This document shows, piece by piece, positions 25,913-64,000 of a DNA stretch of 64,000 bases. Both the position numbers and the translations under genes were made by a program. Below the pieces are notes generated by a model. That model was not told the DNA's origin. It made no database searches and saw nothing but the letters and a program-made list of their open reading frames with translations. The stretch is from Balamuthia mandrillaris. Taxonomy: Eukaryota. Within the stretch, counting starts at the first letter, position 1, and each line of letters opens with the position of its first letter. The stretch spans positions 124,001-188,000 of the forward strand of contig JAVKOQ020000056.1 in NCBI GenBank assembly GCA_031835245.2, read 5' to 3'.

Positions 25913-28900
25913 TTAAAAATTGTACTCGCGGCTGGTATTAGCCAAACCGAAGTTAGCGCTGAGGCGCGTCGTGAGCCGGTTTTGAATGCGACGCCGACGG
26001 GCGTGCATGTAGCCTAAACCAGCCGCAGAGACCAGAAGAGTCAGCAGGAATACGCCTCCTCCAACAGCAGCACCAACGATAGCAAGATTATTATTGCTGG
26101 AGTCTTGTTGGCCATCTTCGGAAGCAGCGAATGGCCTTCCCACGAGCAGGGTGATCCTGGAGGGACCTTCTCCAGGAGGGATGGACAGGTCCTTCGCTGT
26201 GATACGGATACTGTCAAACACAAGGGTGAAGGTAACAGGCCTGATGGTGGAGGAACCATTCGAGAAGGTTTGATTGATGTAGAGAGGAGTGCTCTCGTTG
26301 ATGTTGGGAAACATCCTTGTCGGCAGAGTCCAAGTCATATTGGCTGATGGTTGGTTGTTGGGGTGGTTGTTGTCCAGCGGAACGATGGAGATAAAGATGG
26401 AGGGTACCAATGGTATGTTGTTGTCCTGTGCAATGGGCTCTTCGTTGGGAGGAACGTCTCGAATCTGAAGGACAGAAGGGCTCGTGATATTGTTCACCGA
26501 CAACATGGTGTTGGAGTAGTTGTGCTCTTCGTCACGGATGTCCACGCTCAAGTCGGAAGGAGATGCAGGGGAAGCGTCTTCTACAACCACATCCGTATCC
26601 ACCGTTCTGATGGTGTGAGGGGCGCTCGGGCATTGTTGCGGGGAGGTGGTGCATACTCCGGTGAGACAAAGGGTGCCAATGCCACTATCCCCAACCATTG
26701 CGCAGAAGCACTCTTGGGTGGTGGCACGGCAGGCTCCTGTCTGGCATCGACAAGGCCTGTCTTGAGGGCACCCATTGATATTCGCATTGCACTCACATGC
26801 AGAGGAAGAGAAGCACAAGCCTCCAGGACATAGCCACCCTCCTCCCAATGCACACGTTGATACCATAGGGGTTGTTTGTCCTCCACCGTTGCTACTACTG
26901 GAAGAGGAGGAAGAGGAATCAGGAGTGGAGGGTTCAACAGGCATAAGGCGGCATCGGGAACCACTGGAGGTGATTTCTCTAGCATAGCCTGGTGGACAGT
27001 AGCACCCACAGAGACCAGCAACAATGCGGAGGCTCTCCCCCGGAGCACAAAGAGGACATCGACAGTTACTCTGCACACAGATGCCAGCCGGTAACCCATC
27101 GTCACAGTTCTCGTTGTGCTCATCATCTACCACACCATCTCCACACCGCGGCAGGCGACAATCAGTGCGGCATCGATTTTCCTCGGTATTGCTGTTGAGG
27201 ACGCCCTCGTCGCACTGTTCTCTGCGGTCCGTGACGCCATCGCCGCAAGTGGCATTCTTGCAGTTGGTTCGACAGGCGTCTGGCTCCACGTTGCTTAATA
27301 AAGCCGCTCCTGGATCGCATTCCTCGTTGTAATATTCGTCGGCGTCATCTACAACACCATCCCCACAGATAGGAATCCGGCAGTCGCTGCGACAGGCGTT
27401 ACCCGTAGTGTTACTGTTGTTGACCCCGTCGTCACATGTCTCCCCGTACTGGTCATCCACAACACCATCCCCACATCTCGGTAACGAGCACTCTGCGCGA
27501 CAGGCATTGGGTAAGTCGTTCCTGTTATTCTCCGCTCCGTTGTCACACTCCTCACTGCTATCCACAACACCATCTCCACATTTTGGAGCCTGGCAGGCGG
27601 TCCTACAGGCGTCTGGTTCAACGTCACTTCTTGCAGTACCAGTATCGCATTCTTCACCATACTTGGTGCTACCATCCACTACTCCATCCCCACAAAAGGG
27701 AAGAAGGCAGTTCAGGCGGCAGGTGTTGGGTTTTGTATTGCTACGCTTGTTGCCGTTGTCACATTCCTCACCCGAGTCCTTGATGTCATCTCCGCAGTAG
27801 GGGAGCTTGCAGGTCAAACGACAGGTGTCCGCCAACTTTCCGTTGGCAGGACCGTTATCGCATTGCTCGCCGCTGTCTTTCACGCTGTCACCACAGCTAG
27901 CCTTCTTGCAAGTGGTTCTGCACGCGTCTGGCTTTGTGTTGCTGTTGGCACCACCATCATCACACTCCTCTTCTGCGTCAATCACTCCATCACCACAGCG
28001 GGGCAGCGTGCAATCCGTTCGACAGGCATCTGGCTCGCTGTTGCTGTTCAATATGGTTCCCCTGTCACACTGTTCTCCGTTGTCCCTGACTCCATCTCCG
28101 CAGAAGGCTTCTTTGCAGTTGCTGCGGCAAGCATTCGCCACCATGTCGCTGAGCAGCTCTCCAGTGTCACACTCTTCATCATTGCCATTGTCCACAACTC
28201 CATCTCCGCAAGAAGGTAGCTTGCAGTCGGTACGACAGGCATTAGCTTCTTCGTCAGAATTCGCATCCCCTTTGTCACACTCCTCTCCTCGGCCATTGTC
28301 TATCACACCATCTCCGCACGAGGGAAGCTTGCAGTCGGTACGGCAGGCATCGCTATTGGAGTCACTGTTGGTGGCTCCGTTGTCACAGTCCTCGCCTGCA
28401 TCCACCACCCCATCGCCACAGCTGGGCAACAGACAGGTAGTCCTACAAGCATTGGGTAAGTCATCACTGTTGTGTGCTCCATCGTCACATTGCTCTCCCG
28501 AATTGACTTGTCCATCACCACACGCGGCAAGCATACAGGCGGTACTGCATTCACCCACTCCATTTTGAGCTCCTTCGTCACATTGTTCTCCATTGTCCTG
28601 AACCTCGTCTCCGCACCTGGGATTGGTGCAGTCCATGCGACAGGCATTGGCTCTTGTGTTGCTTCGATCATTGCCAGTATCACACTCTTCGTCACCATTG
28701 ATGACACCGTCACCACAACGAGGCAGAGTGCAGTCTGTTCTGCATGCAGCTTGGGCTGTGTTGGCATTTGCTGCACCTTGGTCACACTGCTCGTCATTGT
28801 CCTGGACGCCATCTCCACAACTTGGCAGGTGACAGGTCAAGCGACAAGCATTGGCTACAGTGTTGCTACGGTTGGGGCCTGTATCACATTGCTCTCCAGT

Positions 28901-31163
28901 GTCCTTGATGCCATCTCCACAGGTGGGAAGCTGGCAGTTGGTCCTACACTGATTGGGGAGGTTGGCAGTAGCTGCTGTGTCACACTGTTCTCCGCTGTCC
29001 TTGACGCCATCCCCACAGGTGGGCTGGCGGCAGTCAGGACGACAGGAATCGGGCAACAGGCTGCGGTTGGATCCGGTGTCACATTGTTCTCCGTTGTCCT
29101 TGACGCCATCCCCACACCTTGCTGCCTGGCAGTTTTCACGGCACGCGTCGGGAAGGCTGTTGTCGTTGTTCTCCCCCGCGTCGCACTGCTCCCCTGTGTC
29201 CACGATACCATCCCCGCAAGTAGGCGACGTGCAGTCTGTGCGGCACGCATCCTTAGTGCCGCTGTTATCGGGGCCGTTATCACACTCTTCAAAGCTGTCT
29301 TTCACACCGTCGCCGCAGGTGGGCAGCACGCAGGTCCCAGGTCGGCACATATTAGGGGACCATGCGTTCAGAACCCCGTTATCGCACTGTTCGCTGTCGT
29401 CCTTGATGCCGTCTCCACATGTTGGATTTGTGCAGCTCGTACGACAAGCGTTGGCCTTAGAGTCGCTGAGAGCTACCCCTGTGTCACACTGCTCATCACC
29501 GTTCACCACTCCATCACCGCAATAGGGAAGTTTGCAAGTAGTTCTGCACGTTCCTTCTGGTGTATCACTGTTATTCTCAGTACCCAGGTCGCATTGCTCT
29601 CCGCTGTCCACAACACCATCTCCGCACCGGGCGTTGGTGCAGTCCTCACGGCAGGCATTGGCTTGGCTGTTGCTGTTAGCAGCACCGTTGTCGCACTCCT
29701 CTCCAGACTCTAATATGCCGTTTCCGCAGGCACCCAAATCAACGGGGGTGTACAAGCGACCGGTCAGATGGTAGCCTGGCGGTGAGCTATACACTCCCGC
29801 CCCGTTCCAAGACACAAAGAAATTGCCATCTTGCAGAAGGATGGCCTTGAGGCCTCTAATCTCGCTGGGAGTAAACTGTGCCAGCTGCTTGAAGTGAATA
29901 GAGGAGGTGGGCTGCAAGGTGAAGGTATCGTAGTTGATATGATAGACCCGGCCAGTCACCCGCCAAGGATTCTTTCTGAGGTCGTTCTCTCGCACGCCTA
30001 TCCAAAATAGCAGCACACGGGGGTTCGCTCCATGCGGCACGTGCAGCCCCATCGGCTCGTAGCAATTCTCGTGCCCGTCCTTGTCCGAGTCGGCTTGCAC
30101 CCGCCCTCCAATCCATGCCAGTCCGTGGGAATTTAGCTCTAACCCTCTGTACCATGCTTCGCGATACCACTCGTTGGTGTAGCCACCCTGGTTCCATAAT
30201 ATGAACGCTTTGGTAGAGCTGATGGGGAGCAATCCTGGGTCCCTCTATAGTGTGAGTCAACGAATATCAGCACATCTGAGTTCATGAACTGCGCCTCAAA
30301 GCCACAGACATGCATACCTGACCCTGATTAGCGCTCTCCCTAGCCCTAATAAATTGGTCGGAAAAGGTATGTGCAACCCAGTGGACCTTTTGTTCGTTGT
30401 CTTCCTTGTCCAGATGTTCGTAGAAGGCGATCAAATGACCTCCCACAAGCTCCGTGCTAAAGGAGTAGTTGCCTCGGCGTCCCATCCAATCCTGATCGTA
30501 CCAGGAACCGCCTATACATTGGGTGAACGTTGCGTCAAATTTGCACTGGTGGACGACTGGAATGACTCTGGCCGGGTCCATTGGGTCCGTCGTATGACAG
30601 CGATACGCAATGCGGTAGGTGCCTGCAATGTTCTCTTTGCCCACTGCTTCCACCTCGCACTTGCCTTGTTGACCTGGCATCACCATCTCGGACTTGGAGA
30701 GCGTCAGATCCTCATTTAAAATTGCTCCCATGATGATTGGTGCTTGATGAGGAGCGCCACTCCAAGCTTGGTAGTAAGTAAAAAGGATAAGCCATTTTCC
30801 ATTGGACATCTGCAGCCCAGCCATCCCGCCCACTCCTCTCACATGCCCCATCGTCGCGTCCGTAGACATTGGGGCGGTGCTCATGTCATCTCTTTGGTTC
30901 ACTCGCACAGCCGAGCCAAGCTCTTCGACTTGTGCTCCATATTGTTGTGCAAAGAGCTGGAAGGCTCCACTCTGCAACCCATAGTAAAGAGCCAAGAAAC
31001 CGTTATGGTCATTGCGGGCCAATATGGTGCCGTACCCTCCGTTCGGTCCGTCAAGTCGCATCTCTCCGCCTGCCGGGTGGTATAGCTGGTCGGGGTCTTG
31101 TGCCTTGGCTTGGGTCGACCATCCCGCCAACAGTAGTGCTAGCAGGAGCATCGCTGAAATCAT
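25913..31163 (-). CDS. Large type I membrane surface protein with ~26 CGDG-x-EQCD Cys-rich (Myxococcus-type / DUF4215-like) repeats
   Basis: Signal peptide MISAMLLLALLLAGWSTQAKA (ATG 31163), one intron ~30249-30318, tandem ~33-aa CGDG..E.CD.G..N....C...C repeats, TM helix AIVGAAVGGGVFLLTLLVSAAGLGYM and basic stop-transfer RRRR. Confidence 0.9.
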
Positions 31164-42411: not shown

Positions 42412-42490
42412 ATCCGTGGCTAAGGAGTTGATTGGAATAGATTGTTTTGTTGTTTCTCTATTCCTATTCTGTTCTCATTTGCAATCATTT

Positions 42491-43090
42491 TAGTAGTAGT
42501 AGTAATAAGAAGTTTATTTGCTCTAAGAGCAACACCAATCTTAACAGGAAGTGTTCTCCTTTTTCTTCCTCAGCATTGCATGCTGGGCACTTCTGTCCTC
42601 TTCAGACTGCTGAATGGCTCCCCACTTTTTTCCAATGGGCAGTCCACTACGACAAATAGCATTCATCAATCATTCTTTCCTTGGGTTGGTAATCACTAAG
42701 CTCCGTTGTTGTCCAACTAAACATTTTCCATTTGTCAGGAAGTTATGCCATAGTCATGCTGTTGTTCCTCTTTCTCCTTCAGCTGCAAACTCCACCTTGG
42801 CTACTCGAGTTCTCATCCTCTTGGCTTTCTTTTCAACATCACTTGTCCCTTCACTTCTCTCACCTTCTTTCTTCTCACCTTCCTCTTTCCTTGCTTGGCT
42901 TATCTCTTCAAGTACTACTATAGCTCAAAGTGGCCATCTTGCTTCTCAGCATGGCGAATTACTGCTTGCCTTTCCAACTCACAGTAGGCCTTGATGGTCA
43001 ACCAGCCCAATTCTGCTCTACAAACCCCCTAACTTGCAATACACTTGCTGTCTCATTTCACACAGCTTTGATCTTCTTCTACCTAAAAGT
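42491..43090 (-). mobile_element. Degenerate non-LTR retrotransposon (LINE) 3' fragment with internal deletion
   Basis: The minus strand encodes KCPACNAEEEKGEHFLL (C-terminal CCHC knuckle) and RAELGWLTI, joined to the shared 3' tail GTTGCTCTTAGAGCAAATAAACTTCTTATTACTACTA. Confidence 0.75.
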
Positions 43091-43664
43091 ATTTCCCTTT
43101 TTTTTTTTTTAATGAAAATGAGTGAAAATGGGAAGAGTTATAAAAAATTCATTGTTTTTTGAGTTCCACACTGGTTTGCTCTCCCTTGAAAGGTCCAAAA
43201 CTACCCTCTCAGAGAGTGGCAAAAAGATATCCCAAGAGTCGCTTTCCATTATAGCTTGGTAGACCCTTCGGTCTTGAAAGAGGTGTTGGAACTCTTCTTC
43301 ATCATCATCATCTGTTTCCTTTCTCATCTCTCACTTTGCCCTTTCTGAAGTTTGACCTTCCTCTTGCTGTTGAATCACAAGCTCCTTCAAACAGCAAACA
43401 CAAGAAAGGGACAAAGGAAAAGAGAAAGAGAGAGGCAAAGGCAAAAGGAGAGAGAATAGATTACTACGAGTTAATACCTGGAGTGATTTTGGCTAATACC
43501 CATTACTCCTTCTTCATGCTTTTCCCACTTCTTCTAACAAAATGTGAAATAGATGTGTCAACAAAAAGCAAATATCAGGCCTCTGAACCACTTTATTCCA
43601 GTTCCATTTGTTTCACCTGTTGTGCCCAAAGGAATTGAAAGGATCCTTTAGCTGAATTTATATA

Positions 43665-44105
43665 CAAGGACAATGGAGATGAAGAACAAGTCAGAAAACG
43701 AATTATAGAAGACTGTACAACAAAGCTCCTGTCAAGTGGAAAGAAATGCAACAGAGCTCAAGAGATGGAGCATTGTAAGCAAAGTTGTAAACAAGTCTGG
43801 AAATTATGGGCAGCAAGAGCAAGTTAGAAGTATGGAAGTTCTTCTGCATTTTATCAATCTTTGGAAGTAATGTAAAAGTAAGGAAATGATAAAAGAGGAA
43901 AAGGGGAAGGAAAGGATAGCTAGATGATACAAAGTTAGTCTGAAAGCTCATTCAACACCTTTCACTTGTAAACTAACATAACAATTGGGAAGGCATTGAG
44001 GATGAGGGAGTAAGAAAAGTAAAAGTACACTATGTATGTATAATGCTTACTTTTTTGTATAGGTTGGTGTTGCTCTCAGAGCAAATAAACTTCTTATTAC
44101 TACTA
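43665..44105 (+). mobile_element. LINE 3' fragment (same family)
   Basis: Near-identical, in inverted orientation, to 54275-54705. Ends in GAGCAAATAAACTTCTTATTACTACTA. Confidence 0.8.
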
Positions 44106-44634
44106 TTCTCTTTGTAGTAGCTTTGGGAAAAACTACCAAAAACTGCCATTTTATGTAGTGGTTTTGCAGCTTTCTCAGTTTGACAACTTCGTTTGACCAA
44201 GTGTGCTAGTAGAGCAAAAAGTACTTAAGTCAGTCCTGCTCCAGATTCCTATAATCAACAATCATACACAGAGGTAGTCAGATCAGCTTCACAAGGGACC
44301 AGATTACTATAGTAAGGAATTCCCCTTCAACAGTAACTAACACAATACAAACAAAAAGGAGAATCTCCTTTTGCTGTTCACTTGGAATATATGGCAAAAA
44401 AAAATATTTTTCAGGTCTTAAAAAAAATATTTTTCTTAAAAATTAATTTTTAGTTAAAAAAATAATATTTTTCCGTTAACAAAAATAATAAAAAAAATGT
44501 TTTTTAATTTCAAAAATATTTTTTATGGTTTGAAAACATTTTTTAAGTTCTAAAAATTATTTTTTTATAAAGCATTATTAAAAGACATTTAATATAAAAA
44601 ATCTACTATTAAACATTAAACAAAATACAAAGAT

Positions 44635-46133
44635 TTATGAATGCTGTTTTTCAAATCTATCTAATTCTGTATAAATTTGAGCTTTGTAAGCAAAAGATAA
44701 TTTGTGATCTGAGGTTAATGCTAAAGGACCCCAAATAAAAGATGCTTAATGTATGTTTTGTGTTTCCTTTTGTAAAAAATAATGTTGACCTCGTTTTGTA
44801 TACCATGATACAGTAGCTTTACGAGGTGTTGTGGAATGAACAAATGCAAGCCAAAAGTCCTCTGAAGAACCATCTTTTGGACAAATAGCATAAATGTGAT
44901 TGGCTAAAATATGGAAAGGTATGCAAGTAGCACAACCAGATGTTGTGACTTGAGATGAAAATTCGATTGAAGAGGAGGAAGCAGCTGAAGTCAAAGAAGT
45001 GGATGCAGAGAATGAAGGAGTATGTTGTCGATTTAAAGTAGTCATAGGTTGAAACAAAGTAAAACAAGGATTATCCAAAGGGAATGAAGGGTGTTGTAAA
45101 TTATAAATCAATGCTTATTCATGAAGTTTGGAAGAAAGCAAGATAGTGGAAAAAGTAGATTGAGTACCTCGAATGCATTCTTCTTCTACACAAGATTTGG
45201 GTATCAAATGAGGAATATGAGTGGAATATAACAATAGATTTGGAAATCCTTTTACCAATGAAATGGGTTTGCTCCAAGGAGCATAAATGTTGGATTTCAC
45301 TTGTAAAATGGGCCATGTTGGACGGCAGGTCATTGTAGGAGTGGGATAAATAAATTTGAAAAATAGAGGTTGGGAATGACCTTCAAGATTTACCATGAAA
45401 GGATGCAACCAACCTTTGAAATCCCAGACCCATTCCAAAGGATGTAATTCTGGATGAGTTTCATCTGTTAAATAAGAAGAGTTAATGAATGTAAAGAATT
45501 GCTCCAAGGTTTCAATATCAAATTTGAGTAATGCTTTATGAAAGGTGGAAAACATTTGATCCACATCTTCATGAGTATGTCCAGGTGGCAAAAAGAACAG
45601 TTTGATCTTGGAAAACATCTTGAGATGCACCAACCAACATAAAAAGGCCAATAAATACTTGTTTTTGTTTTCTTTGTAGCAGTTGTCAGCTTGAAGGTAG
45701 AAGGTTTAGTTGGGATGGGCTCGAAAGGGTTGTTGTAATGTTTGCATAAGAAAGTAAAATAAATGACTGATTACTAAATTGGCATTTCATGACCACTGAT
45801 CAAAATGATAACACAGATAACAATGATGATGCCCATGATCTATTAGTCCGAAACAAGAGACACCGATAAACTTTTTGATGGTCCAGCCTTTTGGGGGAGT
45901 ATGATGATGGGGAAGAGGAATGGCCTCTGTATAATCCATAATGATGGAAATGTATTTGAAAGGAGAGGCTTTGGCTTTAGCATGATGCTTGTAATACTTC
46001 TCTTTGTGTAAACAAACAAAGTGCAAATGATCACTTCGTTCCTTTTGTAAGCCTTGCAATGCCTCCACACTCTTGCATTGTTTAAAACGAACTAGAAGCT
46101 GAGCACATTGATTACATTTTCCTAATCTGGTTT
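44635..46133 (-). pseudogene. Sola-like (DUF7869-type motif) DDD transposase, main exon, with in-frame stops
   Basis: A single frame reads GKCNQC...DHL...YISIIMD...FYLQADNCYKENKNKY...FLPPGHTHEDVDQMFS...WDFKGWL...FWLAFV...VSWY, with four internal TGA/TAA stops and no frameshift. Confidence 0.8.
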
Positions 46134-46183
46134 AACACAGTACAAACAAAAAGGAGAATCTCCTTTTGGAAATTTGAAAGGGT

Positions 46184-48982
46184 TGTAACGGTGATCACGT
46201 CACCTTGTGTTTATTTGTAAGAGGGGATATGTGTGTAACAGTGTAAGTCTCTCTCTCTGTGTGTGAGCATCGTTGCTCACCTTTATATCTTTCTCTTCTG
46301 TTGAGGGTTCTAAGTGATTCTCTCTTGTTTCTCCATGTCGTCATATTCCGTTGTCAATGGTTGGTCACTGCTTGACTCTGATGCAGCTGACTCTATTCTT
46401 GCAGACTTATGTGACGTGTCTGTCAACACCATCACATGCCCTCCCTTAAGGCATGTGTTCATCCTCGAACACTCTTCAACTGCTAACTCCATGACCAAAT
46501 TCTTAGCTTCCTTGCCTTGCTCGATGGGCTCTGCACTCTTCTTCTCGTCATTCTTGTCACAATTGGGCTCTGCACTTGTTTCTTTCTTCCTTCTGTCGTA
46601 TTGATTGGGCTCCACGCTTATCTTCTCTCCTGGGTTGTTGTCTAATTCCATCCTTATCATCTCACTCTCGTCCGTTCTCGTTTTTCCAGTGTTGTTTTGT
46701 TCGGGATCTTCCGTTGTGATGTCTTGTCTGCTCTTGCCGTCATTTTCCACCTGTTTTCAGTTCTCTGCGTCTTCTGGATACATTAAAATGCAACAAAAAT
46801 CCTCATTCCTCTGCAGTCGTGGTCCATCTTTTCTTTTTCAGCTGCTTTTCTCATCCATGCTTTCTCCTCTCCTCCTTCTCTCTCAAGGTGCTTCTTCCAT
46901 ATTCATCTGTGTTGACCTTCAATCATTCTCTAGTTCACAGTTGTGGGTACTAACATCTCTTTTCTTCCCCTCTCTGCCGTCTAAGAGAGCTCGTCCTCAA
47001 GCTTTCTTTCCTTCAAAGCGTCTCCGACATCAAAACGGCCTCCTACCTAAGCCAACAAAGCTCCAAGGAATCCGCCCAGAGTAGAACTTGTATGGATTCG
47101 TATACAGCTTCTTCATGTTTCTCTTGAGTTGTTGTCGATTACTCCACAACGTCAGTCATCTCCCAACACGCCGGAAAGGCGGACCACTGGCTCCGCACCA
47201 GTGTATTGCTGGGCACCTGTGTCCCTCACTTGGCTGCTCTGCAGCTGTGCGTACAACTGGTCCAGGTGTGGCAAGTCCTTTCTCATCGTCCTATCCCACG
47301 TCGAAACTAACACGTAGGGACTCAGCAATGTCACTTTTTCGCATCGCTATACTGCTTGACTCAGTCTCATCTAGGTCGCTGGTGGCATTATCACCATTCC
47401 GGTCCTCCATGTCATCGCGGTCAATAGTTATGTCCTCGTTGATTGACTCCTCTCTGCTGGCATTCCTTAGCAGGGGTGGCGACCCTGAAGGTTGCTGCAT
47501 TAGCGGCTGTGGCTCCTCTAATGGCTGCGACTCCTCTTGTTGCTGCTGCTCATCACCAGTAGGCTGCGGTAGTAGCGCTGTCAACTCCTGCCTTAACTGA
47601 CGGGTGGCCTGCATCAGGGCTTGCATTTCCGCAAAGAGTTCCTTGAAGTCTGCGTAGCTGCTATGTTGCACCGGCAGCTTCTTCTCTGGCTGCAGGGTCC
47701 ATTCCCACGTTGGTTGCAGGGGGAATGGTGCAGAGGAATGTCCTTTCGAAGAATGTGGTGTAGAACGCTGTAGTGGCTTCCTGCATGATGGCTGCTGTTG
47801 CGGGACAAGCTGCGATGATGAGTGCCGTGGTGGCGCTGTTTGCTCAAGGCCGAACTGTTGGGGACAGCGCTTCGGCAGGGCTTGCCTCTGCAGGGTAGTC
47901 TCCTCGGGGTAATACTCTAGCAAAGAGGGCTGTGATGAGGCAGTCCGTCATGTATCATGCTGTGGCCTTGAACACCGAGAATGGCTCTTGGTCGACAACT
48001 GAGGCAGATGGTGACTCTGCTCCAATGCGATTGGTTTGTATGCTGAGCGAGGTTCTCATGAAGGGCCTGCAAGCACAGTAGTGTGGTAGTCATCCTTGGA
48101 GAGGTAGTTTAGGGGATAGTCGCTATAAGCGTCCTCACAGCGGCATCTCCTAAGCTCGTAGCCCGGTGCGTCATCGCTGTAAGCGTCCTCACAGCAGCGG
48201 CGTTCATAACCGTTGTCTGGGACACCGTTGTTGTAAGCGTCTCCACAGTGGTGGCATCCCTACCCTTCAAACCAGCACTCATCCTCGAGGGCCTCCTCTG
48301 GCGTGGGCTGCTGAGGCACATCGTAGAGGGCCACATTGCAAGCGCTTCTGCGTTCCCTTCATAGCTTCTGCTTCCTTGGCTGCACGGCTGAGACTGGCGA
48401 TGCATCCGAGGAGTGGTAGCTACAGCGTCCATTGAAGTCGTAGATGTCATACATGATAGCAAAAAAAATATCAAACAAAATGGGTTATGATGATAAAGCC
48501 AAAACCACTCGAATCAAATCAAAGGCTAGCCGGTGAGGCGTAGCTGTACAAAATCAAATCAAAAATCAAACGGCCACATCACACAAGACTGAATCCCAAA
48601 CAAAAAAAAACACCACACAATCTGCTAAGCCACTTGCACAGACGAAGCAGGGCGAACGGAAGATTGGAAAACAACACTCTGATGGTTCAGTCACCCAAGT
48701 ATTAGGATGACTACTCCGATGTCGCCACTTGTAACGGTGATCGCGTCACCTTGTGCTTATTTGTAAGAGGGGATATGTGTGTAACAGTGTAAGTCTCTCT
48801 CTCTGTGTGTGAGCATCGTTGCTCACCTTTATATCTTTCTCTTCTGTTGAGGGTTCTAAGTGATTCTCTCTTGTTTCTCCATGTCGTCATATTCCGTTGT
48901 CGATGGTTGGTCACTGCTTGACTCCGATGCAGCTGACTCTATTCTTGTAGACTTATGTGACGTGTTTGTTGACACCATCACA
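46184..48982 (-). mobile_element. Non-autonomous LTR retroelement (no recognisable pol)
   Basis: 253-bp TG...CA direct repeats at 46184-46436 and 48730-48982, TSD GGGT. On the minus strand, a PBS-like TGGCGACATCGG follows the 5' LTR and a polypurine AAGGGAGGG precedes the 3' LTR. Confidence 0.92.
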
Positions 48983-49239
48983 GGGTAAAAAATATTTTTT
49001 TAAATCATTTTCCAAAATCAAAAATAATTTTTTTTCTGAAATTTATTATTTTATGAAAATTAAAAATAATTTTTTATATCAAAAATAATGTTTTTTTATT
49101 ATATAACAAAAAAATAATATTTTTTTCACTTTTGTCAAAAAAAAATTAATTATCACTGTGTGGATACATCTCTATATAAAAGATGTAACTTCTCATTTGA
49201 GAATAAAAGTATAATTTTTTCTAATCAAAAAATATCAAA

Positions 49240-52200
49240 AAATTACACTTCAACTCTCTCATATAGCGCGCTCCTTGGCTTACTGCTAAGGTCACTTCGC
49301 TATTTGTTGTGTTTTTGGTGCTTGTTTCAAGCCCTTCCTTACTCAGAACTTATCTGAGACACGTGTGCTGTGGACTCAGCTACTCCAGTGGCAAAGAAGA
49401 GGATAAAAAACGTTTCGATGACTTATGCCATCAGAAGAGCAAACTGATGGAGATGATCAATTAACTGACCGCGATTTGCAAAGAAGAAAACGAGCCACTG
49501 TTCCAACTGCACTCGAATCTGCCTTTGCAACTTCCGGTTAACACTCTGTCAACTCCTTATGTTTCTCCCAAGGGTGTTACCTCTGCAGGTGCTGCTGTGC
49601 CAAAGGTGGTGAAACCTCTGCCTGCTGTGTTCTCCTCCAAGCATTTCTCGCTTTGCTCTGCCACGGAAACTTCTGAGGCTGGCTCCTTGTCTGAGAGTGG
49701 TTACGCTGAACCCTCAGCACTGGGCCATCCAGAACCTTCATCACCCGAAATGGCCTTGGGATAGGCTCATAGCCACCTTCCACGACCACTTTGGCAGCAG
49801 AAACCTGCAGAACGTGCTGCATACAGAGTTCTGTCACTTCTCCTTCAAAACCAGAGAGTAGTGGCAGTGTGCACGCAGCGAGCAGCAGGAGCCATGTGGG
49901 ATATGTTGGGACAAGTGAAGGTCAATGTGTTGGGATCGAACAAGTAGAGATCATTCAAGAATTCTCAGAGCATCGCCTTGGAACACGAATCCGCCTTGGA
50001 AGCCCAAAGCAAGAGAAAGCCCTCGAGACTTTTCCCTCCGAGCAGCTTGAACCACAACAAGGGGACCAAGAACAGCAAACCTTGGTACTCTTTTCACTGT
50101 ACGCACAGTCATTCGGACAAGGACTGCCGAGTCCTCTCCAAGAAAAAGAGTGATGGATCCTCCTCCTCTTCCTCTTCTTCTACACCTGCTACCTCTTCTG
50201 GTGCTCCTCAAAGACCAGCTGGCGTCTGCTACAAGTGCGGTAAGGCGGGACATATGGCAAATCATTGTCCTACTCATGGCACTTCTGCTAAGCCTCCAGC
50301 TTCTTTGCTTAACAGCATGCAGTCCCCTGTGACTGGTGTTTCTCTGGCTCCTCCTTCTGGCAGTGCAGCCTTCCCTTCTCCTTTTCCGGCTACTCCTTCT
50401 TTAAACAACATAGAAGAGAATCCCTTTCAGGAGTTTGAGCAAGCTGCAGCAGAGCTGTTCATGCTTGGTCTTGACGATCATGAAGCTCCTGCCTTCGATA
50501 ACCCCTCTCCTGCTCCTGTTGCTGCTCCTATTATGGTTCCGGCAACCTTGAACAAGCAAAGAGTTAGCAGGGTGAACACCAGCACCTCCTCTTCCTTTGT
50601 GGATCCTTCCCTTGTGGAACAGTTTCACCTCAAAACGACCCACACTCAACAGGATGTGGTTCTGGGAGATGATTCCTCTGCCTCTGTGTCTGCCGTTGCC
50701 TCCCACATTCGTGTGGCGTGTGGTACTCGGAAGTTCTTCCACAACTTCCTCATTCTCAAGCTCTCTGGTTCTACTCAAGTGATCTTTGGCCAAGACATCC
50801 TTGATAGGATAGGCATTGGTCTGTTTGGAATTCCGGTCCGCTTCCCTGGCCCTAAGCCTTCAGCACCAGACAATAAGAACATTGCTTCTTCTGATAAGTA
50901 CGTAGAGTCTCCTTTGCCTCCAGAACTTCAAAAGGCCATTGTAGACCGCATCAAGGACCTTCTTGAAGAGAACAGCGTATTCCTCAAGGTCCTTCCTGTC
51001 CGCTTCCAGAAGGGACAATCCGTTTGGATACCAGAGATCACCCTCTGATATTCAAACATCAGTATCCTATACCAGAAGTCTGGCATTCCTCCATCAATGA
51101 GCAGCTCGAAGAGTGGTACCGCCACAAGGTTATTGTGGATGCTCCCATGGACTCGCCATGGAATTCGACCATTCTTTGCGTCCCTAAGAAGGATGCTAAT
51201 GGCAATTGGACTTCAGCCTGTACCTGCATTGATCCATGAGCTATCAACTCTATCATTGTGGATATCCACTTCCATATTCCTAGTATCCTTGCTGTCATAG
51301 AGTACATCCTTGGCTTCCATATCACCAGCTCACTAGATTTAGTGTGGAGCTTCATGCAGCTTCTAATCTTTGTGCCTCACCAGATCAAGCTCACCTTCAC
51401 CTGGTGAGGGCGCTGCTACTGCTTTCGTGGAGCTCCCTTTGGGGTGAAGATCGTTCCGGCCACTATGCAGCGTCTCCTTGCCCCTGTGCTTAAGGACCTC
51501 GCTGACTGCACCGCACACTATATTGATGATTGCCTCAACCAAGCGAAGCTTTCCAATGTGCTCATCAATAGAGGCAGAGCGGGAAAAGATGTGCGACCCT
51601 TTTGGAACAAGAACTGCGATGAAGCTATCAGTGCCCTTCACCGTATCCTCAGCTCTCCTCTGGTTCTGAGCAAGCCGGACCCCAGTCTTCCGTTCCTTGT
51701 TGGTACCGATGCTTCCCAATATGGCGTTGGTGCTGTGCTCTATCAAGAGTCTGCTGATGGTATTCGCCGTTATCTTGCCTTTGCTAGCCGTGTCCTCAAC
51801 TCTGCTCAACGCAACTATCCTGCCACGAAATGTGAGCTTCTTGCTGTGGTCTTTGCCCTCCACCAGTTCCGCTGTTGGCTGTGGGGTCGCCGCTTTACCT
51901 TGTTCACAGACCACAAGGCCTTGTCGTATCTCTTTACGGCCAAGCATTCTTCTTTCATGCTTAATCATTGGGCTTTCTTGCTGCTCCAGTTTGACTTCAA
52001 CATCATCCACCAGCCTGGTGTTCAGATGGTCTTGGAAGATGCGCTTTCCCACCTCTACCAGCCCAACTTTTGGGAGGAAGATGGTCTGGCTCCACCAGTA
52101 GTTCCAAACGAAGTCAAAACCTTGGCTCTGGTAAAGAGGCAACGCAACATTCCAAGAGTTCCTTCCTTGTCCATGCTTGACGTCTCTCAGCACCCTCCAG

Positions 52201-53863
52201 TTGCTCCGTCAAGAGAACTCATCTGTTACATCAAGCTGTTTTTGGACAAAAAGGCCCCTTCTTTCATGGAAGAACAACAGGAGTTACTCTCCCGCCTCCA
52301 TCTCGCTGGCCATGAAGGTGCTGCCAATCTCTTCAACAAGGTCTGGAACGAAGGTTTCTTCTGGCCTTCCCTTCAGGCTGATTGCTTCGCTACTACCCAT
52401 TCGTGTGATGCCTGCCTTTGTTTCAACATTGCCAGGCATGGTTTTCATCCTCTGAAAACCATCTCCACCACTTTTCCCTTCAAACACATTGCCTTGGACC
52501 TGTTTGGCCTGCTCGCCACCGATGAATCTGGTTTCTGTTATGTTTTGGTGGTCACCAACATTGCCACCAGGTTTACCCTTCTCCGCCCTTTGGTTAACAG
52601 GACAGTGGCTGCTACCACCAGTGCCTTCTATGGGGTCATATGCAATTTTGGCTTTCCCAAGATTGTACAGTCAGACAACGGCTCTGAGTTTGTCAATGAG
52701 ACCATGGCTACTATCAAGGCTATCTCTGGCTTCGACCACAGATTTATTGCTGCCTATCACCCGCGAGCCAATGGTGCTGCTGAGGCCCATGTCAAGCTTG
52801 CCAAGTCCGCCCTAATGAAGCTGGTCTCTTCCGATTGGAGTCACTGGTCCACCTTCCTTCCAGCTGCCCAATTTGCGATCAATCAAAGGCTGACCTCCAG
52901 GCATAAATTGACTCCCTTTAAGCTCTTTCTTGGACGCCCTGTCAACCTTCCGAGTGATTTTTCCAACGTGGAATCCAATCCCCTTCCTGAGGCTGACCGC
53001 CTTGCACAAATTGCCAAGTTGCATTCTGTTGTCTGGCCTGCTGCTTTTGATGCTACTGACCTCTACAACCAGATTGTGTCTGTGACGCATGACTCTTCTG
53101 TTTCCTTATTTGAATTCAAGCCAGGTGACACTGTTATGCTTCGTCATTCTGCTGCCACCTCCAAGATGGATCCGAAGTATCTCGGCCCCTTCTCTGTCAA
53201 ACGCAGAACCAAGAGTGGTGCATATATACTAGTGGATGTTACTGGCAACGAGTTGAAAGATCGTATTCCTCCTTCTCTTCTTAAGCTAGTTCCCCCTCTC
53301 CCTTCTGGTTCCTTGATACTCCTATCCTCTACTCCAGTTCTTCCTGATAAGACCGATTTGGAATCTCAAGCCGACCCTGATGCTTCTGATGATGTTAATT
53401 CCAAGTCTGATGATGATAACAATGATGATTACTCCAAGTCCTACGAAGTTAGCAAGGTGCTAGACCACTGTGGACCTGCCAACCGCCGAGAATACAAGGT
53501 CAGATGGAAAGGCTACTCTCCTAAGTACGACCTCTGGATTCCAGTCAAGAACTTTGATGATCTTCGACCTGTCAATACCTACTGGAAGAAGCTTTGTTTG
53601 AAAAGGGGGTGATGTTGGAAAACTCCAACATAATAGCCCTTCTTCTCTTCCTGTCGACCTCTCCCTCATGCCTGTCAACCTGAGGAAACCTCTTGGTGTC
53701 CAACTTCTCCTTTCTTGAACTTCTCCTTTCTTGTTGTTTTCTGTCTCTGCCCTTTTATGCTGATATTCTCTGTTCTTCTTTTTTGGATAATTGTTCTAGC
53801 TTAAATACTGCCTCTCCTTGCTTCTTCTTCTTCTTCTTTTTCCTCTCAGGACAACTTACAACA
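49240..53863 (+). mobile_element. Ty3/Gypsy chromodomain-bearing LTR retrotransposon, degenerate, 5' LTR not seen
   Basis: Gag knuckle CYKCGKAGHMANHC, eroded protease, RT (SPWNS, HYIDD, partly deleted), RNase H (TDASQYGVGAVL), integrase (H..H..C..C, SDNGSEF, NGAAE), chromodomain YEVSKVLDH...YKVRWKGY. PPT AAAAGGGGG, then putative LTR TGTT...AACA ~53614-53863. Confidence 0.92.
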
Positions 53864-54274
53864 AAACACAAGATACTTTACTATCACTTGTACTCTTCAC
53901 TTTTAGTAAATTAAGTTCAAGTCTCATACTTACTTTATCTCCACCATCATTCCTGTTCTTATTTTTTATGACAATTTATCCATCAAATTATTGTACTTAT
54001 TTATTGTAATATATGTAATGAGCTGCGCCATACAGCGCAGCTCTGTTTGTTTTTTCAATATTTTATTTTTTTTCCAAAAAATTTATTTTTGTTTATTAAA
54101 CAAGAAAATCAAAAATATATGATAAAATTGGTGAAGAAACTATTCAATGATACCAATTTGATAACTAAAGGAAAAGAACTTTATTTGAGTGAAGAAAAGA
54201 GAGAAGAGAGAATGGGAAAGGTATATGGAAGAGTGGTATAACAAATAAATTATTTCAATATCAAAAAGTGTTTA

Positions 54275-54808
54275 GTAATAAAAGTTTATTTGCTCTGAGA
54301 GCAACACCAATCTATACATAAAAAGTAAGCCTTGTACATACATAGTGTACTCTTACTTTTCTTACTCCCTCATCCTCAATGCCTTCCCAATTGTTACTCA
54401 ATTCACAAGTGAAAGGTGTTGAATGAGATTTCAGACCAACTTTGTATCATCTAGCTATCCTTTTCTTTCCCTTTCCTTTCTTCTCTTTTCCTTGCTTACA
54501 TTACTTCCAAAGACTGATAAAATGCAGAAGAACTTCCATGCTTCCAACTTGCTCTTGCTGCCCATAATCTCCAGACTCGTTTACAACTTTGCTTACATTG
54601 TTCCATCTCTTGAGCTCTGTTACATTTCTTTCCACTTGACAGGAGCTTTGTTGTACAGTCTTCTATAATCAGCTTTCTGACTTGTTCTTCACTTCCATTG
54701 TCCACACTCCAGATTCTAAAGCGATCTTCCCAAAGGTTAGGACACCTTAACAGGAAGTGTTCTGCTGTTTCTTCCTCAGCATCACAAGCAGGGCACTTGC
54801 TATCCTCC
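54275..54808 (-). mobile_element. 5'-truncated LINE insertion with 14-bp TSD
   Basis: TCAAAAAGTGTTTA at 54261-54274 and 54809-54822. Encodes KCPACDAEEETAEHFLLRCP...VWRLWAAR and carries the shared 3' tail. Confidence 0.88.
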
Positions 54809-55317
54809 TCAAAAAGTGTTTATATTCATAATTTATTTTCAATATAAATATTTAAAAAAATAAAAGAATATATTGTAAATATAGTTATTTTTGTGTTTAT
54901 TATTTTTTTTTTGAAGGAAAAAATAATTTTGGAAATAAGAAAACCTTTTTTTTATTCTTTTTATAAAATGAAAAATAATATTTTTGTGATAGAAAAATAA
55001 TTTTTTTAAGGCCCCAAAAATAATTTTTTTTGCCATATAATCCAAGTGTGAAGCAAAAGGAGATTCTCCTTTTTGTTTGTACTGTGTTGTTTGCTAATAC
55101 AGAAAGCTTGTATAAGAGGGTATTGGCTGTGCTGTATGACCCAAGATCTGCCCTTCACAATGAAGGTTGCTAAATTCTTTGTTGAAAGGAAAGGGCACTT
55201 TTGCATCGTATGACGCACTCAACACTCTTGCTTGCTAGAAAAATTTGAAAAAATTTGCTTTTCATTGGATAGGAAGGATAGCCAATGCCTTTTATACAAT
55301 AGTAGAGAGAGCTGAAG

Positions 55318-56208
55318 AGGACTGATTTGCACTGCACAGCCTAGCCAATGCCAGCCATACAAAAGAAAAGAGAGCAGAAAAGGGCTAATCTGTGCTGTAT
55401 GGTGCAGCTCATGCCTGCCATACAAAAGAAAAAATTGTGGAAAAAGGCTGATCTGCACCGTACAGTGCAGCCCATGCCCCTCATACAAAAGAAAAGAGAG
55501 TGGGAAAGGGCTGATTTGCACCATATAGTGCAGCCAATGCCTGTGAAACAAAAGAAAAAATTGAGGAAAAGGGCTGATCTGCACTGTACAGCACAGCTCA
55601 TGCCTGCCATACAAAAGAAAAAATTGTGAAAAAAGGCTGATCTGCGCCATATGGCGCAGCCTATTCCTGCCATACAAAAGAAAAAATTGTGGAAAAAGGC
55701 TAATCTGCACCATATGGCGCAGCCCATGCTTGTCATACAAAAGAAAAGAGAGCGGAAAAGGGCTGATCTGCGCCGTATGGTGCAGCCCATGCCTGTCATA
55801 TAAAAGAAAAGAGAGCAGAAAAGGGCTGATCTGTGCTGCACAGTGTAGCCAATGCTAGCCATACAAAAGAAAAGAGAGCAGAAAAGGGCTGATCTGCGCC
55901 ATACAGCACAGCCCATTCCTGCCATACAAAAGAAAAGAGAGCAGAAAAAGGCTGATCTGCGCCATACGGTGCAGCTCATGCCTGCCATACAAAAGAAAAG
56001 AGAGCAGAAGAGGGCTGATCTGCACTGCACAGCGTAGCCAATGCCAGCCATACAAAAGAAAAGAGAGCAGAAAAGGGCTGATTTGTGCCATACGGTGCAG
56101 CTCATGCCTGCCATACAAAAGGGTTGATCTGCACTGTACAGTTGATGCCAGCCATACAAAAGAAAAGAGAGTGAGAAAGGGCTGATCTGCGCCGTACAGT
56201 GCAGCCAA
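55318..56208. repeat. Tandem array of ~15 units, 63-bp period, each with an 18-bp palindrome and an A-rich tract
   Basis: Unit consensus GGGCTGATCTGCGCCGTACGGCGCAGCCCATGCCTGCCATACAAAAGAAAAGAGAGCAGAAAA. Unit starts at 55384, 55447, 55510, 55573 ... 56077. Confidence 0.93.
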
Positions 56209-56690
56209 CGCACTAGTCTCAAAATTTGAATGCAAGCAAAAAAACAAAAGAAAAAGGGATAATGGCATAGCAATGCTGGTCTCTCTTTCAAACAAAATGC
56301 AGGTTGAACAGATTTGACAACTGAGAACAATACAAACCGTTATGCCTCACAGTCCTTTCACAAGTTGAACTCAAAAGAAAGAATTATGAGGTTGGATGTA
56401 AGAAAGCACATTCAAGCCCCTTTATTATGGGAACAAAAAGCTTTCAAATTTCCTTTAACTTGCTGTCACTTCTTCCAGCACCATATCAGCAATGCTCTCT
56501 GTCATTGGTTGTCCTCCACAAAGTCTGCAGCAAATCACAGCGATTTGACTACCAATTAAACGAAATTCAAAAGAAAAAAAAGAGGGCCAAAAGCAAAACA
56601 AACTCCCAAAATTTTAGTTTGTCACAAAAGTGCACAACCATTCACACTGTTCACACATATTCCTTGCTTTTTATTTTTGCTGTTGTGGTT

Positions 56691-59600
56691 ATGTCGGACA
56701 ACAAGAGATTGACAGTGAAAGAACTGCGGCAAAGGATCGAGGACCTCAGTGGACAATGGATCACCAAGGACTCCAAATCTGTCTTATCGCACAAATTGCA
56801 AGTGCTACAAACTCCTACGTCAAATCCTTCTTCCAACCAACCATTGGACCTCTCGGAAACAGATGAAGGCTCATCTTCCTCCCCGTCCAACAGGTAAAAC
56901 AACTTCAAGCTATCACTATGAAAGGTTTGTGCTTGTATTTTTGTGTTATAGTCAATGACTGAACGGCCACTATTCGCTTTGCTTCTTTCTTCCTCAAGAG
57001 AGAAGGGCCAGTCCAGCTCCATCCTACTTTTGCCCTTTCTCTTCTCTCATCCAAATTATTATTTGAAGGGATGGTGTTGACTGCACTGTACAGCACAGAT
57101 CAGCCCTTCAGCTCATTTGCTGCACCAAACGGCACAGTTCAGCCCTTCAAATCCTCTAGTACTTTAGAAGGGAAATCATTGGCTGCACCATATGACGCAG
57201 CTTAGCCCTTCAAACCTCTGGTATTTTTGAAGGGTGTTGGCTGCGCCATATGGCACAGATCTGCCTGAAAGATCAACACTTTCCTTTTATAGTTTGGGTG
57301 ATGATTGCGCCATATGGCACAGATCACAACTGCTGCCTTAATTTCTTGTTTGGCTGGCAAGAAAAGGTTATAGGCTGCACCGTATGACGCAGCTCATGCC
57401 TTTGGCCTTTTTCTCTCTTGTTGACTAGTTGAAGGGCATTGGCTGTGCCATATGACGCAGCGGATACCCTCCACAGTTTTTCTTTTAACTTTGTACTGTC
57501 ATTAACTTCTTATGTTTTATCAGGTTGGCATTGACCTCAGACCAGAAGGGTTGAATAAGCTGCTGGCCACATTCAACTCAGGTGGCATTTTGTCTTTTGA
57601 TGAACACTCTTCTTTATTATTGATGGAAATGCCCTCAGCTCTGTGGGTGCATCCAGAAAGCAATCAACAAGAATATGTATATCTTGGAGGTAACCATCAA
57701 TGTGCAGCAGCCCATGTATTGTACTGTGAAAACTCTCCAAAGCTGAAGGAGTTAACTTGGAGGGCCAAAGTGCTGCCATTTAATGGCAAACAACTTCCAA
57801 GTGTGGCTGTCTTGGACAAGGTACAATACCTTGGAGTTTTATGTTGTTTTTTCTGTTTTTTAACACGGTGACTTACTCATATTTCTTGGAAGTTGTCTGC
57901 CTGGGACAACCTGGTGTTGTCCGAAGGAGTCAATCAAGAGACAGAATGGGATATGGTCTGTTTTGTGTACAATCATCTCACAAAAACACCAGAGGAGCTG
58001 TTACATTATCTGGTAGGATGGTCCTTCTTTGGTTGCAGGCAAGCTCTGAAATGATTGCTCATTTTCTCTTTTTTGTGTTGGAGAGGAGGGGGTTTTGTAT
58101 TTTAGAATTCACAAACTGCCTCCCAAGATGCCCATAATGCTCTCACCTTTGATCATGTTCAATGTTTGAAAACAGTGGCAAACAAAATGCAGAAATTCCC
58201 AGAGTCTTGGAGTTATATTCAGGAGAAGGACAAAGAAAAGGGGGGCTGGGTGTTTACTCCTTATCACTTGAGAGAGAAAATGCCAAGCTCCTTATCAGAT
58301 GAAACCTTGTTGGCAGCCTTGAAAGAGATATGGGCAAGGCACCTTGAGGATCCCAAGGAAGAATGTTCTGTAACCATCATGAGATGGTTTTGGTGAAGGA
58401 GGTGGAGAGGATTGAGGTGTAGTGGTGTTTGAGTGGAATGGAGGAGAAGCTGGTTCATCAGAGGGTATGTATTGCTACCAGCAAGGAATGAATAAATGAA
58501 TGAAAGATAGCTATTGAAAGGAAAAAAAAAAGAAAAGCAAAAAACAACAACCAAAGACCTCTTCCAAACACCAGGCCAAAAAAGCAAAAAACCATCATCG
58601 TGGCAGACCCAAACTCAACACTCCTCCTCAACCCTCCAAACAATTGGCCCACCAACTCAACAAATGGGGAAAGGATGTGCTTGCTTCTCATTCCCCTCCT
58701 ACCAAGTTCAAAGTGAACATTTATGATAATTTACCAACACATGCTCCCTTGATGCTTGATTCCTTGGGAGTACACTGCCAAAGTAAGTCTTTTTTGGGTT
58801 ATTTTTTCCAAAGAACTCAGATTGCTGTCTGTCTAATTTTCTCTCATTCTTCCCAGACCATTATGTGGAAAGGGTTTTGTTGATAACTACCCATTATAAT
58901 CACTTGCACTTGGCCATGAATCAAATCAATGCCAAAAAACAAAAGCAACATCAGCTTTTGATTAACTTGAAGCTAGAAACAGTTCTTGTTTTTGGGTACA
59001 AACCTCACCATTCCAAGCATAACAACAAACCACAATGGTGTGAGAATGGCATGTTTGTGGCAGTGTGGAACAAAGGCCAAACATAGTTGCAGGATGATTC
59101 TAGTTCGATTACTTCTTCTCTTGTTGGCCTTGGAGACATGGCAACCAACTTCAGTGGTGATTCCAATCAAGGGACCTCAAGCTCAGGAAGGACAAGTGGC
59201 TGATCAGGCGAATCTCTCTTCTTCTCCTGTTCCTCCTTTAAATGTGTATCATTATTTGCTGAACACATTCACAGAGCCTAAAGATGTGGTGTTGGCCTTT
59301 AATTCCACAACAGGTTGTTTGCCTGCAGTTTGTTTGGAAAGTAAGTTCATCCTTTTGTTTTTCCTTTCCTTGTTTCTTTTGGTAATGAACTAAAACATTT
59401 ATAAATGTTAGCAATGCGTCATTTTGTGGCCTTGTTTCCTGGTTCTAGAGCCACAAACTTAGCAGAGCATGCAAAATTATTAGCAACCACTGTGTTGGAT
59501 AGAAACAAGGTGCAAAAAGGCTTAGTTGCTTGGAAGAAAAAACAAAAAGTTCTGAAAGAAGATTTAGTACCAAAAAATGCAGATGATGAAGATGATGAAG

Positions 59601-59926
59601 TTCCAAAAGATAGTAATCAATCTGAAGAGGAAGATGAAGAACTTCCAAAGCTTACCTCCAAAAACCACAAAAAATCAAAAGCACAACAAAATGAAAAAGA
59701 AAAAAGTAAAGAAGTAGAAGTAGAAGAAGAAGAAGAAAAAGAAGGAGAAGAAAAAGAAGGAGAAGAAGAAGAAGAAAAAGAAAGAGAAGAAGAAGAACAA
59801 GAAGATACAGAAAGTAAAAAGAACAATAATAATAGTGATGAGGATTTTTCAGATTCTGATAGCAACACATCTTCTCAATCAACCAAATCAAAAAAAGATA
59901 AAGGAAAAGACAAATTAGACAAATAA
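56691..59926 (+). pseudogene. Transposon cargo gene: SAP/HeH-like, ParB/Srx-like, degenerate N6/N4 DNA methyltransferase-like, charged tail (multi-exon, disrupted)
   Basis: MSDNKRLTVKELRQRIEDLSGQWITKDSKSVLSHKLQ; YVYLGGNHQCAAAH; PLNVYHYLLNTFTEPKDVVLAFNSTTGCLPAVCLE|TMRHFVAL; E/K-rich tail. GT-AG introns, several stops and frameshifts. Confidence 0.5.
57075..57465. repeat. Seven copies of the same palindrome separated by divergent spacers
   Basis: GCTGCRCCRTAYGRCRCAG-like copies starting ~57081, 57120, 57183, 57241, 57305, 57375 and 57443. Inverted relative to the 63-bp array. Confidence 0.85.
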
Positions 59927-60106
59927 ATTCTGTTTTTGAAATATCAACTTTCAAACAACAATAATAAAAATGTTTTCTTTAATATTTATAAAATACTATG
60001 CTATTCATATAAAAAATAATTTATGATTTTCCTTATTAAAAAAAATTTGAAAAAAAATTATTTTTGATTTTGGAAAAATATTTAAAAAATTATTTTTTGC
60101 CTTTTC

Positions 60107-63385: not shown

Positions 63386-63435
63386 GGAAGAATCATTTTA
63401 AGCCTTGGTGTGGGAGCTGCTTCAGGTAGAAGAGG

Positions 63436-63606
63436 TAGTAATAGTAATAAGAAGTTTATTTGCTCCAAGAACAACACCAATCTATACATAAAAAGTAAAC
63501 ATTAGTACATACATAGTGTACTCTTACTTTTCTTACTCTTTCATCCTCAATTGTTATAATGGTTCACAAGTGAAAGGTGTTCAATGAGCTTTTAGACTTA
63601 CTTTGT
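63436..63606 (-). mobile_element. LINE 3'-UTR fragment (same family as 54275-54808)
   Basis: Matches 54273-54447, including TAGTAATAAGAAGTTTATTTGCTC..GA.CAACACCAATCTATACAT. Confidence 0.85.
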
Positions 63607-64000
63607 AGGTAGAAGAGTTTGAAGTTGCTGCTTTCTTGAATCCATTCCAAAGATCTTTTTCTTGTCTTCCCTGGAACTTTCCTGAGCCTAGAACTTAAGA
63701 ACCAAGAAACCAAGAAGTTACTCGCTTAGGCTTCTGCCTTTGAAGACAAGCTTGAATTCCTATGGATGTGCATGCTGTGTACTCCATTTAACTACAACCC
63801 CAAAGTGATCTTTCTCTTTTGAACTTTCTTGAAGAGCGACTTTCAGAAAGCAAAAATATATTTAATAAACAGAAAAGACCATTTGTAAGTGTGTTTTTGT
63901 TGCTTGTTGCTTTTCATGTGTTTTTGTTAAAGGGAAGTTATTTGTAGTTGAGAAGGCAACCAAGGAATGAGGCTTGGGATTGAGAGTGATAGTTTCTCCA

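Follow-up and report, generated by a model that had tools for sequence, protein, structure and literature searches.

Two algal genome papers of 2025 propose, in the text available from each, that ParB-like accessory proteins bind and modify the transposons that encode them (PMC12477816; 10.1101/2025.02.11.637652). The available account of Sola1-1_Ec32 from Ectocarpus gives AACCG termini, a 4-bp target duplication and an opposite-strand gene for ParB and N4/N6 methyltransferase (PMC12477816). Plavaka elements of Bostrychia, as far as their description is accessible, have tandem inverted-repeat arrays beside the ParB-like PAG3, for which binding has been proposed (10.1101/2025.02.11.637652). For the VANDAL elements of Arabidopsis, the accessible text describes motifs bound by VANC, which form dynamic tandem repeats within the introns of accessory genes (PMC5735166). 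ParB-linked methyltransferases of eukaryotes have also been listed, and the available part of that list does not include the element described below (PMC4738411).

We analysed a window of 64 kb (64,000 nucleotides) from a Balamuthia mandrillaris contig (JAVKOQ020000056.1) and found palindrome arrays in a broken, multicopy, two-gene DUF7869 DNA transposon with AACAC termini. In the open-access literature searched, we found no description of this element and no paper that names DUF7869. Several of its traits recur in the accessible description of Sola1-1_Ec32: a 4-bp target duplication, termini of the form AAC...GTT (AACCG in Ectocarpus, AACAC in Balamuthia), terminal repeats that are long and imperfect, and an accessory gene on the opposite strand. 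In Sola1-1_Ec32 this gene joins ParB-like and N4/N6 methyltransferase domains; in Balamuthia a ParB-like fold is predicted and a methyltransferase-like one is a candidate. Palindrome arrays are present here, whereas the accessible account of Sola1-1_Ec32 reports none, and the methyltransferase motifs look degenerate in Balamuthia; the two systems are compared by description. Sola1-1_Ec32 is given as 21.5 kb long with an accessory protein of 1104 aa, while the Balamuthia protein has about 800 aa (P0020 and P0037 summed).

With Plavaka and PAG3, as described in the available text, the locus shares tandem inverted-repeat arrays beside a ParB-like accessory gene, as a candidate target of the element's own protein. 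In that account, the transposase of the Plavaka elements is of the EnSpm/CACTA type, ParB is joined to a 2OG oxygenase, the methylase has a gene of its own and the arrays are adjacent. In contrast, the Balamuthia element has a DUF7869 transposase, a predicted fusion of ParB and methyltransferase folds, and two mirrored arrays, one of them inside the gene. VANC, in the part of its description available, likewise involves an element-encoded accessory protein, a short family-specific motif, tandem duplication in introns of the accessory gene, and gain and loss of units. VANDALs are Mutator-type, the protein is unrelated, the motif is 9 bp and non-palindromic, and its function was shown experimentally; we treat VANC as a possible functional analogue only. 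Bacterial ParB-parS partition relies on sequence-specific binding, CTP-dependent spreading and a ParA partner. The Balamuthia locus resembles it in a predicted ParB_N fold, a G-x-x-R-like motif and repeated palindromes of similar length nearby. It differs in being a eukaryotic, intron-containing transposon; no ParA-like partner gene was detected among the element's reading frames scanned, and a role in segregation is not implied.

At its left end the host element has a terminal inverted repeat that starts with AACAC (44339-44373, plus strand), and AT-rich sequence comes after it. An AT-rich right subterminal region, followed by a LINE fragment, lies at 60011-60101 (minus strand). The right terminal repeat was not found in the window. 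Remains of the transposase (44794-55093, minus strand), recognized by a profile match (E 2.7e-42 against DUF7869) and by the protein of relatives, are split by a nested element into 55093-55089 and 46133-44794. Its two closest relatives are 94-95% identical and carry the NCBI name Balamuthia mandrillaris (2 of 8 matches from 151 candidates); relatives of the element under this name are 91-95% identical. The transposase motif D..DNC..NKN..GHT resembles what we take to be the Sola1 pattern.

The nested element (46134-55088) has 35-bp perfect terminal inverted repeats that begin with AACAC and a 4-bp target duplication, GTTT, and its excision restores the exon reading of the transposase model P0001. 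Terminal inverted repeats with a 4-bp duplication are as in Sola1. The only target site seen, GTTT/AAAC, deviates from the AWWT preference given for Sola1 in the accessible text of its description (PMC3845634). Sola1-1_Ec32 is also listed, in the available portion of its account, with a target bias other than AWWT (PMC12477816), so the deviation may mark a sub-lineage. By its sequence the element may be classed as Sola1-like only. A Helitron reading suggested by the terminal hairpin and a CACTA reading suggested by the CAC termini were both dropped on finding the AACAC termini and the 4-bp duplication. The terminal repeat holds a hairpin of its own of about 19 bp (55063-55081, 44351-44373 and 46146-46168) that can be mistaken for a Helitron end.

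The segment 46134-55088 forms a four-level nest, with the non-autonomous element inserted in a transposase exon. It contains an LTR element with a 4-bp duplication (46184-48982), a chromodomain Gypsy remnant that lacks its 5' LTR and ends at 53863, and a LINE piece with a 13-14-bp duplication (54275-54809). The first-pass annotation had called this non-autonomous element a deletion derivative. We find that the two copies match at their ends alone (79% over 187 aligned bases, 77% over 91) and that the host has no core at the place matching the nested element's core; it is thus a relative and not a proven deletion derivative. A single LINE family with a TAC/TAG-repeat tail has several truncated copies in the window (42490-44105, 54275-54809 and 63435-63607), and pieces of it also occur within the gene models P0010 and P0012. 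Elsewhere, degenerate tandem repeats of about 102-108 bp with higher G+C (27100-29700) probably represent a repeat-protein gene.

The accessory gene (56691-59926, plus strand) is broken. Its exon map and predicted folds give a ParB-like N half, an N4/N6-methyltransferase-like C half and an acidic tail. This copy has two internal deletions (one removes most of exon 2, a later one about 65 codons), frameshifts and stops, and read contigs have loose ends within the gene at 56905 and 58376. Transposase and accessory gene are neighbours on five contigs by accession order (consecutive numbers on three, three numbers apart on two more), and the 5' half of the accessory gene adjoins the transposase wherever contig order is readable. 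The models P0018 and P0034 match the window's own reading and were left out as independent copies.

Array 2 (57081-57460, plus strand), the array in the accessory gene, was located by pattern scan; its seven palindrome cores of 18 bp are separated by spacers that for the most part differ from one another. The cores start at 57081, 57120, 57183, 57241, 57305, 57375 and 57443, with start-to-start spacings of 39, 63, 58, 64, 70 and 68 bp, which bears out the seven copies mostly 58-70 bp apart that had first been noticed. Chance does not account for them: a pattern tolerant of CpG decay has 19 matches with at most one mismatch in the 64-kb window and none in 30 dinucleotide shuffles. At up to three mismatches there are 23 matches in the scan of the window, all of them inside 54023-57443.

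The placement of array 2 in an intron of the cargo gene also agrees with the gene models of other copies. In three of these (P0009, P0017 and P0020) AITMK is joined directly to GWH, which implies a predicted phase-1 GT-AG intron of 599 bp (56925-57523, plus strand) that encloses the array; introns elsewhere in the gene measure about 70 bp. The models P0010 and P0011 read through the array, so that it is present in both copies while the models disagree on the intron. Three runs of RNA reads gave 45, 51 and 0 reads, too few to judge splicing or expression, with almost all of them on the neighbouring repeat at 60119 and none on array 2.

The cores descend from one perfect 18-bp palindrome, CTGCGCCGTACGGCGCAG, which is rich in CpG (four CpGs), by CpG decay. 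Among 87 differences from it in the 23 cores, 69 are CpG transitions, 2 are other changes at CpGs and 16 lie elsewhere. The 10 non-CpG positions have a mean identity of 89%, compared with 45-59% in nine of ten spacer pairs. The central two bases vary at 57120, 55831 and 56020, as would be expected if a dimer bound two half-sites set apart by a spacer. The observed/expected ratio of CpG falls to 0.06-0.29 at 54-60 kb of the window, compared with 0.47-0.93 at 1-42 kb, and this depletion of the element suggests methylation by the host.

Contigs from four of four sequencing runs, from four studies, contain array 2 (27-30 of 30 bins); one of these runs is possibly the window's own source. In run X1, the summed depth over the array is 233-715, within the span of values along the remainder of the element and far below the 4423 of the adjacent repeat; summed depth is not a copy number, and a single 18-bp core falls below the length that it can register. 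Two loose ends from X1 at the first core look, by eye, like array 1 of the host element, and one contig of run X12 joins the intron acceptor to a different upstream sequence. Among the 40 variants of other copies listed (18 further ones lie beyond these), 26 fall in cores, which make up 25% of the bases (binomial p 1e-7). These 26 comprise 14 changes back to the perfect palindrome, 10 further CpG decays and 2 others. As other copies restore 14 of the 26 deviations listed, the ancestor would have had near-identical cores, each with four hypermutable CpGs. The cores are the most variable bases in present copies, so selection may be inferred for an active ancestor only. The proposal of a selected cis-element is therefore kept in part: a cis-element of the transposon, with the ParB-like accessory protein as candidate partner, is our best reading, while the retention of the motif on which the proposal drew does not hold for present copies.

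Spacers of array 2 are 21-52 bp long. The first-pass annotation had described them as unrelated, and alignment supports this for most pairs. One pair, s2 and s3, is a duplication (73% identity, z 8). The other nine of ten pairs reach 45-59% identity against 43+/-4% after shuffling, and it is mostly the flanks that lift them above the shuffled level. Once the flanks are trimmed off, s2/s3 alone is clear and s5/s6 is marginal. Against the spacer of array 1, s2, s5 and s6 align weakly (z 2.3-5.9, flanks included). The flanks quoted earlier are a consensus that no single copy carries whole. A 33-38-bp part of spacer s4 (57278-57315) recurs with other flanks in two contigs of run X12.

Array 1 (55280-56204, minus strand) is built from 63-bp tandem units that each contain the core of array 2 in mirror orientation. 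Its 63-bp period (55280-56121) corresponds to 6.0 helical turns. The relatives' transposase begins with ~205 residues that have no counterpart in the 64-kb window, so array 1 may be intronic or lie 5' of the coding region. Upstream of it on the minus strand, 56340-56560 holds a possible short frame with TGA stops of the CpG-decay kind and an open antisense frame. This frame is covered by contigs of the family and is unlike the relatives' transposase, and it is possibly an exon without annotation or a third gene. An upstream transposase exon at 56339-56552 was considered and rejected; the first 215 residues of P0001 match nothing there.

The arrays face each other across the divergent promoter region, and their mirror orientation holds for most copies. 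Using a flank model from array 1 on the minus strand, four of the seven cores of array 2 are clearly plus, two are weakly plus and the one at 57375 is ambiguous. An isolated, worn core on the transposase side (55127-55144, plus strand; pattern scan and flank model) leans to the orientation of array 2 and is an exception to the idea that each array is sense-oriented to its own gene. Among the isolated copies listed at first, the one at 54023-54040 is a genuine core with unrelated flanks (pattern scan), and that near 55201 (55201-55218, minus strand by the flank model) is very worn with more than three mismatches. The core at 54023 belongs to the nested non-autonomous element, since the target duplication of the LINE shows that 53864-54274 was once contiguous with the right end of that element.

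The accessory protein is predicted to have a ParB-like fold and an N4/N6-methyltransferase-like fold. The Atlas model of P0020 (pLDDT 0.61) matches ParB_N or HTH_ParB clusters in nine of ten rows, four of them at the naming bar, with TM by query of 0.39-0.45 for the ParB-like N half. The Atlas model of P0010 matches N6_N4_Mtase clusters in ten of ten rows, every one below the naming bar. AlphaFold models with a mean pLDDT of 34 (P0010) and 33 (alignment A1) were left out of the fold search. Sequence searches of Pfam, PHROGs, NCBIfam and PDB detected neither a ParB nor a methyltransferase domain. GGNHR is kept across the family in the ParB-like part. Active amino-methyltransferases carry the motifs DPPY and LDPFxGSG; the family has YDNLP and LAFNPTTG in their place, so the methyltransferase-like module looks catalytically worn. 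The predicted-structure matches thus place a ParB-like accessory gene inside the element, with inverted-repeat arrays at and in that gene.

Searches for relatives of the accessory protein gave 4 matches from 64 candidates and 5 from 307, none of them outside Balamuthia. A search with the exon 57524-57820 against 1.84 billion representatives returned P0009 and two ice-binding proteins, and the latter were judged spurious. Alignment A2 gave no related loci in viral and prokaryotic genome contigs, and P0001 as the query gave none in metagenomes.

We also inspected 22 metagenome loci with a related transposase (63 kb in total, most of them short). Clusters of at least three copies of one palindrome occur in 4 of the 22, compared with 2 of 220 shuffles and 0 of 14 window tiles of 4 kb outside the arrays; shuffles are not a natural-genome control, so we regard the palindromes in these distant relatives as a lead. 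In two to three of the 22, the clustered palindrome has a sequence peculiar to that locus. A different 15-bp palindrome occurs six times in L020, with mixed spacers, in the region between transposase exons (2254-2590; exons assigned by eye and by one weak tblastn match), and once more alone at 100-114, a layout like that of the Balamuthia locus. In L001, another palindrome is found three times past a divergent reading frame (131-288; 480-930). These three copies may be intronic to a second, divergent gene that adjoins a DUF7869 transposase of intact appearance, in a contig that ends early; a likeness of the upstream gene to the accessory protein, seen by eye, had no support on comparison. In L021, seven palindromes form a 28-bp tandem that the family member L012 (10.6 kb) lacks, so this array may not belong to the element. 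Three palindromes in L019 were dropped, two of them being within transposase coding sequence. The window's 18-bp motif was not found in the 22 loci, and no ParB-like accessory gene was detected in these mostly short sequences.

We propose, with a probability of roughly 0.55, that the accessory gene's own protein, with its predicted ParB-like fold, binds the cores of array 2 as parS-like sites. This reading draws on cores that were alike in the active lineage despite spacer drift, on the same core in unrelated flanks, and on the predicted ParB-type fold of the gene that bears the array. By analogy, the sites may serve to regulate or shield the element. The protein would recognize the two 8-bp half-sites of the palindrome as a dimer, load onto the many sites that flank the divergent promoter region on either side, and then spread. 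In this way the element would stay expressed or be protected against methylation by its host. As the methyltransferase module looks worn, the protein would bind and not modify DNA. The arrays would grow through tandem duplication; in the active lineage, cores would then be kept while spacers drift, and after methylation of a copy its cores would decay fastest. Several observations count against the proposal. The sequence searches showed neither domain, the cores vary most in present copies, and no ParB-like gene was detected in the 22 mostly short loci. Spacing in array 2 shows no helical phasing (3.7-6.7 turns), joints in other copies swap 57161-57449 and 57171-57270 for other letters, so that the array varies, and both fold assignments come from Atlas predicted models only, with TM by query of 0.24-0.45.

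Array 2 could instead be a neutral old minisatellite, a decayed relative of the 63-bp unit of array 1 in which slippage, gene conversion and hairpin template-switch repair keep the palindrome alike without a protein partner. We consider this unlikely. Spacing near 63 bp, the s2/s3 duplication, the weak alignment of three spacers to that of array 1, unit numbers that differ among copies and cores that now decay freely all fit it. The middles of the spacers are mostly unalignable, yet the non-CpG bases of the cores are largely identical, and unrelated palindromes recur in distant family members. Hairpin repair would be expected to preserve symmetry, not an identical sequence in unrelated flanks such as those at 54023. 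That the non-autonomous element keeps a core would also suit sites for the transposase in place of the accessory protein, that is, an internal transposition enhancer or an autoregulatory site, and the available text of one study indicates that transposases can be sequence-specific regulators (10.64898/2026.08.24.746577). The array of L020 lies between transposase exons with no accessory gene seen in a contig of 4.7 kb, but this contig stops in the upstream part of the element, which limits the lack of a second gene to the contig. No cores occur in the terminal repeats or AT-rich subterminal regions in the 64-kb window, and we think transposase sites quite improbable.

The chance is slight that the units act as RNA hairpins in pre-mRNA, for splicing or small-RNA control, or form a repeat-spacer memory array that captures foreign sequence. 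Units that include the GAAGGG/CCCTTC flanks do fold as hairpins, spacers vary among copies, and the piece of s4 in other contexts would suit capture. Against this, Rfam gave three weak matches to array units, none near the gathering score, and the array had no match in 50,697 phage records. The motif pattern was absent from viral contigs, and spacer sequences matched only chance words of 11-15 bp in the window and the 22 related loci. Constant repeat and spacer lengths and foreign-matching spacers, as in CRISPR, are thus not seen, and two of the spacers are duplicates.

The parS-like reading also has a bolder form, which as a whole we hold to be doubtful: a self-contained ParB/parS-type switch in a eukaryotic cut-and-paste transposon. 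A ParB-methyltransferase reader would clamp CpG-rich palindromes on both sides of a divergent promoter, spread and hold off host cytosine methylation. Methylation of the four CpGs of a site would eject the reader and silence the copy for good. Each family would have its own palindrome, and non-autonomous relatives would keep a single site for borrowed protection.

A design of ParB-like accessory genes and arrays has already been reported in algal transposons, and the Balamuthia locus extends it to an amoeba. One element here joins the two published halves, a Sola1-like gene predicted to encode a ParB-methyltransferase fusion and inverted-repeat arrays, and it provides an exact 18-bp candidate site together with a candidate protein. 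If the binding is true, this would be a second route, after plant VANC, for transposon self-recognition and self-regulation, built from a DNA clamp of bacterial or phage type.
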